A stretch of DNA of 2,564 nucleotides from the sequence record PZ049725.1; one strand, given 5' to 3'. This DNA is from a phage. Positions within the stretch are counted from its first letter, which is position 1, and each line of letters starts with the position of its first letter. The notes under the pieces are model-generated. The model did not search any database. It was given only the letters and a program-made list of their open reading frames with translations, and had not been told where the DNA came from. Shown in pieces: positions 1,744 through 2,564 of this stretch. Position numbers and translations under genes: made by a program.

Positions 1744-1787
1744 ATACGTTTTTTAGTTGTAACGACAACATAGATTAAGCTTGATTT

Positions 1788-1836
1788 GTTCTTTTACGCC
1801 TGCAATAGAAGCTAAAAAGGCGCATAAAAAAAGAAC
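1788..1836. repeat. Bipartite imperfect inverted repeat (8-bp outer arms plus 5-bp inner arms)
   Basis: gttctttt (1788-1795) pairs with aaaagaac (1829-1836), and cgcct (1797-1801) pairs with aggcg (1818-1822), around a 16-nt loop with an asymmetric internal bulge. It lies immediately downstream (in minus-strand sense) of the stop of the orphan frame and about 55 nt upstream of the small-ORF RBS. Confidence 0.3.
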
Positions 1837-1941
1837 TTATAAAAAGTCCTTACCGTATTCTTTAAACCATTTATCTAGTTTTGCATTGCTTTCACCGTCT
1901 ATCCAATTTCTAAGTTCCTCGCCTATTTGGTCGAGTTCTTT
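1837..1941 (-). other. Start-less protein-like open frame (34 codons plus stop): candidate 3' exon or C-terminal remnant of an upstream gene
   Basis: Minus-strand frame translates to KELDQIGEELRNWIDGESNAKLDKWFKEYGKDFL and ends at TAA (1837-1839). It is bounded upstream by an in-frame TGA (1942-1944). It contains no in-frame ATG, GTG or TTG. Its composition (G, E, D, W, R) is less AT-biased than the surrounding spacer. It is on the same strand as every other gene and in a different frame from the HNH ORF. Confidence 0.3.
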
Positions 1942-1960
1942 TCAAGCACTGGTATAGTAG

Positions 1961-1992
1961 TACATATAATAAAAGCACCTAATTAAAGGTGC
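1961..1992 (-). terminator. Candidate intrinsic terminator or structured RNA element at the 3' end of the HNH gene
   Basis: Minus-strand RNA forms a 6-bp stem (GCACCU, loop UUAAUU, AGGUGC; plus coordinates 1975-1992) followed directly by a U-rich tract UUUUAUUAUAU (complement of 1964-1974). The HNH stop codon (1983-1985) sits in the loop. The stem is short with 4 GC pairs, so this is marginal. Confidence 0.35.
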
Positions 1993-2564
1993 ATATCCGA
2001 TAAATATTTATAAAATTGTTTTCTAGTTGTTTTTTCACCTTTATATTTGTTGTGAAATTTATTATGACAACTTACACAAAGAGTTACTCCATTGTCTAAA
2101 TCTAATCTTAAATCTTTATGATCATAGCTATCCAGATGGTGTGCCACTAAATTGTATCCATCATCTTTGGTTTTACCACATATCTTGCAAGTATAATCAT
2201 CTCTTTCTCTAACACTTTTACTCCAAGACTTATATCCAAATATTCCACGATTTTCAATTCTATGATTTTCGGATATATTGTTATCATATCTTCCATTGTT
2301 TTTACCACTATTAGCTTTAGATATTTTCCTTTTATACTCTTTCGTCTGCATTACTTTTCTAAGATTATCCCTGCTTTCAGTAGAGTTTAAATAAGTATTG
2401 GCTATGTTTTTAGAATTATTTACAAATGCTTCTCTGTCGGATTTATCTGTATTCTTCCACCAATTATCAAAAGCTTCTTTTCTGCTTCTTGTATTAATTC
2501 CTAATTTTCTTAATTGTCTTGATAAATTTCCACTATCACAATTAAGTTCTTTAGATATCATAGG
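1983..2564 (-). CDS. HNH-family (beta-beta-alpha-Me) endonuclease, likely homing-type; 5' end may lie beyond the window edge
   Basis: ORF open to the right edge of the window; first in-window ATG at 2559-2561; stop TAA at 1983-1985. The C-terminal region (aa 125-170 of the in-window ORF, about nt 2052-2189) contains the HNH signature: C-K-I-C ... N-L-V-A-H-H-L-D ... N-G-V-T-L-C-V-S-C-H-N-K-F-H, i.e. two CxxC pairs, catalytic His and a conserved Asn. The N-terminus (ISKELNCDSGNLSRQLRKLGI) resembles a short helix-turn-helix DNA-binding motif seen in phage homing endonucleases, followed by a basic K/R/N-rich linker. Confidence 0.85.
   Translation of the reverse strand, partial: PMISKELNCDSGNLSRQLRKLGINTRSRKEAFDNWWKNTDKSDREAFVNNSKNIANTYLNSTESRDNLRKVMQTKEYKRKISKANSGKNNGRYDNNISENHRIENRGIFGYKSWSKSVRERDDYTCKICGKTKDDGYNLVAHHLDSYDHKDLRLDLDNGVTLCVSCHNKFHNKYKGEKTTRKQFYKYLSDMHL

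Follow-up and report, generated by a model that had tools for sequence, protein, structure and literature searches.

What is an HNH endonuclease gene doing among the head genes of a phage? We asked this of a 2,564-nucleotide (nt) stretch of phage DNA (record PZ049725.1; "the window" here means this whole stretch), in which all genes lie on the minus strand and a gene cut by the window edge encodes an HNH endonuclease upstream of the scaffold and capsid genes. The original prediction, made from the sequence of this stretch, had left the choice between a homing endonuclease and a packaging factor. In relatives, the gene proves to be optional cargo, and the neighbouring gene for a minor head protein resembling gp7 of phage SPP1 is interrupted at one and the same point in every close carrier. 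We think it probable, if by no means certain, that the protein is a free-standing homing endonuclease that would target this point in gp7, with small insertions or deletions (indels) conferring immunity, as in the pairing of MobA with gene 60 in phage T4.

An HNH endonuclease gene in an optional cassette

The reading frame enters the window at its edge, base 2564, and runs on the minus strand to a TAA codon at 1983-1985, giving 193 residues. Positions 1983..2564 hold the 3' 193 codons and the stop of the gene, as judged from open reading frame (ORF) calling, the Pfam HNH family, PHROG families and comparison with the homologue P0001; the ORF had been recognised correctly before, with its 3' end misplaced at 2052 instead of 1983. 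The first 33 codons and the promoter fall beyond base 2564. P0001 is 227 amino acids (aa) long, and the window protein therefore lacks 33 N-terminal residues, in keeping with the earlier suspicion that the true start lies outside the window. Pfam HNH (PF01844) matches residues 126-173 (E 8e-9; 35.9 bits against a cut-off of 21.4), and the best PHROG families are generic 'HNH endonuclease' families (E 1e-15). The profile match and inspection of the motif place the catalytic core, with its two CxxC pairs, at 2046..2189 (minus strand), where every motif residue that had been predicted is present: C126-x2-C129, H142-H143, N158 and C163-x2-C166-H167. In an alignment of 13 family sequences, all 13 of which match PF01844, the catalytic and zinc columns are invariant, and the core as a whole is strongly conserved (39 invariant columns). 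The HNH_3 profile did not match the window protein at E<=1, and the HNH protein matched none of the anti-phage defence families. Judged by its sequence, the ORF encodes a PF01844-type HNH endonuclease with a zinc-binding [CxxC]2 core at the C-terminus, a layout that is indeed the reverse of that in I-HmuI.

The remainder of the protein had been described as an N-terminal helix-turn-helix (HTH) followed by a basic linker. We modelled the full-length homologue P0001 with AlphaFold2 from the 13-sequence alignment (mean predicted local distance difference test score, pLDDT, 81.6; predicted template modelling score, pTM, 0.40); the model has four N-terminal helices, a helical linker and a C-terminal beta-beta-alpha HNH core. 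The stretch ISKELNCDSGNLSRQLRKLGI ('ISKELN...LRKLGI') forms helices 33-40 and 44-53 in this model (local pLDDT 85-93), and the 33 extra N-terminal residues of P0001 form two more; window residues 1-20 (2505..2564, minus strand), which correspond to P0001 residues 34-53, make up the HTH-like part of the four-helix module. Matches to HTH families are all below threshold (MarR in 6 of the 13 members, AraC in 5, as well as HTH_34 and TnsD), and DeoR/SorC DNA-binding domains match weakly in Foldseek. The predicted HTH-like module is seen in the model and, at sub-threshold level, in these family matches. The basic linker contains a borderline NUMOD3-type motif within a helical segment (residues 73-90; 2295..2348, minus strand), which scores 21.9 bits in the window protein against a cut-off of 20.4 but 17.8 bits in P0001, and which is matched by 10 of the 13 members at E<=0.1. 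When the whole model was compared with the PDB in Foldseek, only weak matches resulted (best E 0.05), owing to its being a flexible multi-domain chain with a pTM of 0.40; the top match was the GVE2 HNH endonuclease (5H0M), which is also the sole solved relative by profile search (E 2e-7, covering family-profile residues 121-203).

Our search for homologues, in a space of 5.8 billion proteins, found twelve full-length relatives of 225-260 aa, the closest being P0001 at 99% identity. An exhaustive profile search yielded some 50 representative proteins at E<=1e-30, of which many span nearly the whole profile, and more than 13,000 at E<=1e-10; among the best 150 listed, matches weaker than E 1e-30 are mostly restricted to the C-terminal half. 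Since matches to nearly the full profile are numerous, the domain order HTH, NUMOD3-type linker, HNH is less usual, not unique. Isolated phage records contain no close homologue (best 33-47% identity over the C-terminal part), and the sole match in a scan of representative genomes was a distant HNH protein of Blastocatellia. The only hint at a host is P0007, named from Romboutsia timonensis. We take the phages to be pac-type siphophages from gut Peptostreptococcaceae-like hosts.

On the contigs of P0001, P0002, P0003, P0005 and P0007-P0012 the HNH gene occupies one and the same slot, in the order small terminase (Terminase_2), large terminase (Terminase_3/6N), SPP1-type portal, Mu-F-like protein, HNH, in some cases a small gene, scaffold and major capsid; on the short contigs L078, L079 and L068 only the genes immediately flanking HNH are visible. 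The Mu-F-like protein, called gp7 here, scores 36.9 bits against the SPP1 gp7 domain TIGR01641, under the cut-off of 39.65. HNH lies two genes from the terminase, with portal and gp7 between it and the large subunit; the check that had been proposed, for a terminase gene directly upstream of HNH, comes out negative, gp7 being the upstream gene in every relative. L017, which we found through the gp7-like protein of the HNH-carrying L001, has a 97% identical gp7, then 213 nt, then the scaffold gene, and lacks HNH; the flanks of the two loci are 97% and 83-88% identical. Besides L017, the survey of distinct gp7 loci showed 38 of 53 to lack HNH. In a wider survey of 46 viral contigs, the interval from the gp7 stop to the conserved scaffold leader holds nothing, a 48-aa ORF, a Rha-like gene, gp49_66-like genes or HNH, and the HNH cassette stays in one slot across lineages whose proteins are now 51-79% identical.

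The gene also comes with signals of its own. An intrinsic terminator (GCACCTTTAATTAGGTGC then TTTTATTATA; 1965..1992, minus strand) lies over the HNH stop codon; the terminator scan found this 1 site against 0.2 expected, and the same element is present in L001 and L003. A TTGAAT-17-TATAAT-like site precedes the HNH gene in nine of the ten HNH-carrying loci examined. Sequence outside the ORF amounts to only ~35 nt plus ~30 nt within the cassette. HNH is optional cargo, in a self-contained cassette that brings along its terminator and a promoter-like site.

Directly past the terminator lies a piece of gp7. Alignment with L017 and L001 identifies positions 1837..1964 (minus strand) as an untranslated, displaced second copy of the gp7 3' end (CTTIPVLEKELDQIGEELRNWIDGESNAKLDKWFKEYGKDFL and stop). 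In L001, L003 and the window lineage, ~128 nt of this 3' end are doubled, once at the end of gp7 itself and once after the HNH terminator, and the 5' edge of the displaced copy, at 1964, is the right junction of the cassette. The window's copy encodes CTTIPVLEKELDQ...KDFL followed by the stop; one nucleotide that L001 and L003 have is missing from it, and the resulting loss of frame is what one would expect of untranslated DNA. Its KDFL ending is that of gp7 genes in HNH-less phages, whereas the functional upstream copies of carriers end in YFI or HFI, and the displaced copy therefore looks like the recipient's original gp7 end. With gp7 seemingly split and its end downstream of HNH, we also considered an intron-encoded endonuclease. 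This was rejected: no Rfam intron was found in the window or L001, the non-ORF sequence comes to only ~30-35 nt, and upstream of HNH there is a complete gp7 end as well.

The interrupted gp7 gene

Uninterrupted gp7-like genes encode 299-311 aa and read through ...CxxC...LPLD-HP-(N/L)G-x-C-T... to their end. In all eight HNH lineages at least 51% identical to the window protein (P0001, P0002, P0003, P0005, P0007, P0008, P0009 and P0010), the gp7 frame is broken exactly between His-Pro and Asn/Leu-Gly-x-Cys, within a CxxC...H...C motif whose final Cys lies downstream. The break takes several forms. Four have an in-frame stop: CAT CCT TGA CCT AAT in L064, CAC CCG TGA CCG AAT in L079, CAT CCG TAA CCT AAT in L008, and CAT CCG TGA CCA TTA in L012 and its relatives. 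L004 has an 11-nt insert that changes the frame (CAT CCG TAGTGAAG CCA AAT) and L003 a +1 change (CAT CCC T AAC); L001, L017 and L078 have a 1-nt deletion (GAC-AC CCN), with L001/L017 and L078 representing two distant lineages. The most distant homologues, P0011 and P0012 (46-49% identity), adjoin an intact gp7 in which the Asn codon is replaced by one for Ser. Counted as distinct site regions, interrupted sites number 13 with HNH and 14 without it, and uninterrupted sites 2 with HNH and 24 without; the two uninterrupted sites with HNH are of the L068 type (L066/L067 are similar), lie beside the most distant HNH homologues and have Ser for Asn. The association of interruption with HNH is a pattern, not a clean test.

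Is gp7 still translated beyond the break? The 42-45 codons that follow it are open in all interrupted alleles. Among lineages of the NG.C group, synonymous changes downstream of the break are at or near saturation and non-synonymous divergence (dN) is 0.2-0.3; in the LGRC group, synonymous divergence (dS) and dN are lower (dN 0.04-0.2, dN/dS 0.06-0.67). This constraint is much like that in uninterrupted genes, suggesting purifying selection on the downstream frame. Alleles with an in-frame stop invariably have a second Pro codon after it, the 11-nt allele regains the frame at a CCA, and the +1 allele reads CCC_TAA_C. A single kind of hop, in which the ribosome would leave a CCN at the stop and re-pair on the next CCN, could account for the in-frame, 11-nt and +1 alleles, not for the 1-nt deletion alleles. 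In the latter (L001 2599-2650, L017 5778-5830 and L078 ~330-400), the deletion just before the His codon puts the conserved C-terminal frame out of phase. A separate start for the C-terminal piece is found only in L004 (a GTG overlapping a TAG) and L078 (an in-frame ATG at the deletion point), and in none of the in-frame stop alleles. We rejected an altered genetic code, since all three of TAA, TGA and TAG are found at this site in one phage or another, and the neighbouring genes end in them too; one frame-changing allele contradicts it too.

Three recombination junctions also fall within ~15 nt of the break. Most interrupted alleles of the large LGRC group share, at 98-100% identity (90-92% for L047), a block that extends from about -60 to +40 relative to the site; the same block (~100 nt) is only 60-76% identical to uninterrupted alleles, and sequence farther upstream is freely mosaic. 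L023, which is interrupted and lacks HNH, matches the HNH-carrying L079 at 86-100% up to the site and the uninterrupted L025 at 90-100% from about +20. This switch places a crossover between AATGG and TGTAC, and it is at that TGTAC that the displaced gp7 end of the window lineage starts. In addition, the spacer of the HNH promoter, ATCCTAATGGATTGTGTAC, mimics the gp7 site, ATCCnAATGGAnTGTGTAC. The alignment score for L001 was reached by 0 of 500 shuffles, the same core is matched in 9 of 10 loci, and the spacer of L012 tracks the Leu-Gly-Arg-Cys variant of its own lineage; the mimic may be what is left of the insertion site, or else an operator. In L001 (2606-2635), the interrupted site within the gp7 coding sequence is for its part promoter-like (TGGACA-18-TACAAT, 10/12 matches) and resembles the HNH promoter region 150 nt downstream.

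A probable homing endonuclease and its alternatives

We propose that the N-terminal four-helix HTH module and the NUMOD3-type linker would read DNA, which the zinc-stabilised C-terminal HNH core would then nick or cut. The enzyme would act on HNH-less genomes, in the conserved gp7 sequence coding for His-Pro-Asn-Gly-x-Cys, ~130-230 bp upstream of the cassette, and repair off the carrier genome would copy the cassette across. Carriers would shield their own gp7 by a small indel, be it a stop with a duplicated Pro codon, an insert of 11 nt, or the gain or loss of 1 nt. This indel would have to be passed by ribosomes, most simply by re-pairing of peptidyl-tRNA-Pro on the next CCN (a short 'stop-hop' or a +1 slip), which would restore His-Pro-Asn-Gly-x-Cys exactly. 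The remnant at 1837-1964 would be the recipient's own gp7 end, left at the break. We infer the cleavage specificity, the immunity and the recoding from comparisons of sequences. A bolder version would make HNH and the gp7 interruption one mobile unit, and with its His-Pro-Asn-Gly-x-Cys target, 1-11 nt immunity indel and Pro stop-hop a second, independent invention of the MobA/gene 60 principle; this is a possibility that we hold tentatively and with more doubt than belief.

Several points weigh against this explanation. The gp7 gene of the window phage, with its presumed interruption site, lies beyond the window, and the window's own upstream sequence was not recovered by exact look-ups of the capsid and scaffold proteins, by a 40-mer search of viral and metagenome collections or by megablast against phage records. 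In the 1-nt deletion alleles, which include that of L001, the window's closest relative, as well as those of L017 and L078, no shift site, stop or start explains translation of the C-terminus. We sought a conserved take-off hairpin at the interrupted site, and found none that is shared. Promoter-like matches are no commoner than in shuffled sequence. Interrupted gp7 is as common without HNH as with it, so the interruption could serve another purpose; the counts themselves come from loci that were sampled partly via HNH and are phylogenetically related, and the types of interruption may share one ancestor rather than being independent events. The copy in the window could be weakened, since it lacks one codon (the Thr of SYD-T-HKD) that is present in 12 of 12 homologues, including the 99% identical P0001, from which it differs additionally by one Asn/Ser exchange. 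Lastly, the closest solved structure, that of the GVE2 enzyme, belongs to the terminase-linked group of HNH proteins.

Could the gp7 interruption be unrelated to HNH? The gene might be programmed to make a short and a long gp7 in a fixed ratio, by readthrough or frameshifting, or it might be truly truncated, with a dispensable C-terminus. Phage structural genes often recode for two products (PMC5009743), the Pro codon, stop and following C form a leaky context, and 14 distinct interrupted alleles are found without HNH. Nonetheless, we consider an unrelated interruption unlikely. L025 is uninterrupted although closely related to L023, so a fixed ratio is no conserved need; every close HNH lineage is interrupted, and no HNH protein at least 51% identical stands beside an intact site. 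The break falls inside the CxxC...H...C motif, with the last Cys downstream of it. Moreover, the in-frame stop is always followed by the second Pro codon, and readthrough cannot read the 11-nt allele.

The constancy of the slot across lineages at 51-79% protein identity, the clustering of junctions at the gp7 site and the duplicated gp7 end beside the cassette are marks of repair-mediated copying, and speak against an enzyme that does not home at all. A nuclease 'moron' might instead be a weapon without homing, cutting the gp7 of competing or superinfecting phages (exclusion) or else host or foreign DNA. Such a role would suit a cargo slot that holds unrelated accessory genes in relatives, a gene with its own promoter-like site and terminator, and resistant-looking gp7 alleles that are widespread even without HNH. 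We regard a weapon alone as distinctly unlikely, and note that exclusion and homing are compatible with each other.

The missing codon raises a different alternative, that the window copy is decaying or domesticated and is now an inactive relic of a homing endonuclease or a non-cutting DNA-binding regulator. The flanking gp7 remnant is itself decaying, as its 1-nt deletion indicates, shortened members occur in the P0009 cluster, and the target mimic in the promoter spacer would suit a repressor. Against this, the ORF is intact to its stop, its catalytic and zinc residues are complete, and the core is strongly conserved in the family. The deleted residue falls in a loop of variable length (window ~2127-2135, minus strand; residues 140-143), and we think decay improbable.

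A terminase-accessory (cos-site) role like that of HK97 gp74 or the GVE2 enzyme, needed for genome maturation and packaging, would fit the location in the head/packaging region and the [CxxC]2 zinc site typical of that group (PMC3592412), as well as the structural match to 5H0M, but is very improbable, given that HNH never adjoins the terminase (terS-terL-portal-gp7-[HNH]-scaffold in all contexts), that Terminase_2, Terminase_3/6N, the SPP1 portal and gp7 are pac-type rather than HK97-type cos modules, that L017 and 24 further distinct gp7 alleles do without the gene, and that the small cos-site enzymes are only about half as large as this protein with its HTH-like and NUMOD3-type modules. A packaging role is thus disfavoured by optional presence, pac-type modules and distance from the terminase. 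Of the two functions originally offered, the homing endonuclease is the one that fits, by its optional presence, its own signals and the nearby breakpoints.

Neighbouring genes and known systems

The rest of the window, also on the minus strand, belongs to the head module. Upstream of the scaffold module, the variable cargo slot is bounded on its right by a conserved leader at 1745..1813 that resembles the GP20-b RNA motif (Rfam RF03003); the window sequence reaches 25.9 bits (E 0.009), short of the 36.2-bit gathering score, which L025 3967-4037 exceeds with 38.8 bits. The leader block is conserved in L017, L001, L003 and L064. In the window, the leader precedes a 61-aa ORF (1547-1732) rather than the scaffold gene directly. 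This ORF has a GGAGGA ribosome-binding site ahead of it and no family match; it had been listed as a 74-aa ORF at 1547-1771, which is over-extended, the ribosome-binding site indicating the ATG at 1732. The small gene after HNH has been swapped, the window having this ORF where L001 (3749-4015) and L003 have an 88-aa Phage_gp49_66 gene; the mosaic boundary is exactly the start codon, and both sides are 89-99% identical. The scaffold gene (981-1547; Phage_scaffold, E 1e-35) and an HK97-fold capsid gene (65-961; Phage_capsid, E 2e-34) follow.

Other genes of these phages are interrupted too. In L037, a group I intron (4906-5143; Rfam RF00028, 112.8 bits) interrupts the major capsid gene, and L035 and L041 have similarly split capsid ORFs. 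The large terminase is split into Terminase_3 and Terminase_3C pieces in L012 (5414-7586) and L013 (5963-7586), with an HNH_3 endonuclease gene between the pieces in L012 and a ~390-nt gap lacking an ORF in L013-L016. The two arrangements look like one intron that has kept its endonuclease in the first case and lacks it in the second; in L012, Rfam yielded no intron at the gathering score. In addition, L008 (15034-19092) and L009 (9516-13574) have a 366-aa HNH-domain ORF where L010 (5285-7795) has an intact 836-aa tape-measure gene, suggesting a further endonuclease insertion in the tail module of the same phages.

The closest analogue of the system that we propose is the mobile cassette formed by T4 MobA and the gene 60 bypass, in which the insert blocks cleavage by MobA (bioRxiv 10.1101/2022.08.31.505936). 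The gene 60 insert is bypassed by ribosomes, is present in every carrier and has been kept in some genomes after loss of the endonuclease (bioRxiv 10.1101/2022.08.31.505936; PMC5009743). Here, too, a free-standing HNH-family gene lies beside its putative target gene, and a frame-interrupting insert is found in all close carriers and was apparently retained in some HNH-less genomes. The two systems are analogous, not homologous. They have no sequence relationship, and the interrupted gene encodes a minor head protein here and a topoisomerase in T4. The gap is 50 nt long in T4; here the inserts measure 1, 6 or 11 nt, or a single nucleotide is deleted, and the would-be take-off and landing codons are Pro CCN rather than Gly GGA. 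T4 has a take-off stem-loop and a nascent-peptide signal, whereas no consistent take-off hairpin is found here; finally, the target gene here is not split into two genes.

Other endonucleases share individual features. T4 MobE-type HNH homing endonucleases and phage nuclease genes at boundaries of genetic exchange are likewise optional intergenic cassettes with their own expression signals (PMC2790892, PMC10448857). They likewise show presence or absence between near-identical genomes and adjacent recombination breakpoints. The family described here differs in its order of HTH, NUMOD3-type linker and HNH core, in belonging to phages of low-GC gut Firmicutes, and in the partial duplicate of the target's 3' end that flanks the cassette in the window lineage. 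I-HmuI, the intron-encoded nicking enzyme of Bacillus phage SPO1, is a monomeric HNH enzyme. It resembles the window protein in combining HNH with helical DNA-binding modules, including an HTH, and in NUMOD-type motifs, borderline in the window protein; by contrast, the window protein has its catalytic domain at the C-terminus and a PF01844 core with two CxxC zinc pairs rather than HNH_3, and it is not intron-encoded, Rfam having found no group I intron in the window or L001. The same zinc-bound core is found in the group of the GVE2 enzyme and HK97 gp74, from which our protein differs by ~120 extra N-terminal residues, by a position away from the terminase, by the lack of a cos-type module and by being dispensable in relatives.

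For the recoding that we propose, the nearest precedents are the CCC_UGA +1 frameshifts of the Listeria phages PSA, A118 and A500 (PMC5009743). These, too, have a Pro codon directly 5' of the stop in a structural gene of a low-GC Firmicutes phage, and CCC_TAA_C in L003 is the counterpart here. In the Listeria phages, shifting yields a second, C-terminally extended product, whereas here it would restore a single conserved motif. Stop-hops between matched codons have been demonstrated in synthetic constructs, and a 2016 review stated that natural in-frame cases were unknown (PMC5009743); the CCN-stop-CCN arrangement of L008, L012, L064 and L079 has the same matched codons around the stop.

What the locus offers, then, is a probable free-standing homing endonuclease, in itself a known kind of element, and most of the interest lies just outside the window, in its apparent coupling to a presumably recoded gp7 interruption; the displaced gene end at 1837-1964 is the window's single physical trace of that coupling. 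Annotators should not take an HNH gene for a packaging factor simply because it lies in a head module; this one is optional cargo. For the study of mobile elements, the family provides putative site-specific nucleases with a narrow predicted target, ~30 bp of a conserved head gene, for which presumably resistant and sensitive alleles occur naturally. For the study of translation, the interrupted gp7 alleles would, if decoded as we infer, be short natural bypass sites in several forms. They would be the first natural in-frame stop-hops, in comparable variants (CCN-TGA-CCN, CCN-TAA-CCN, an 11-nt gap and a +1 slip). If the coupling is real, an endonuclease paired with a recoded immunity indel would be a recurring solution, not an oddity of T4.

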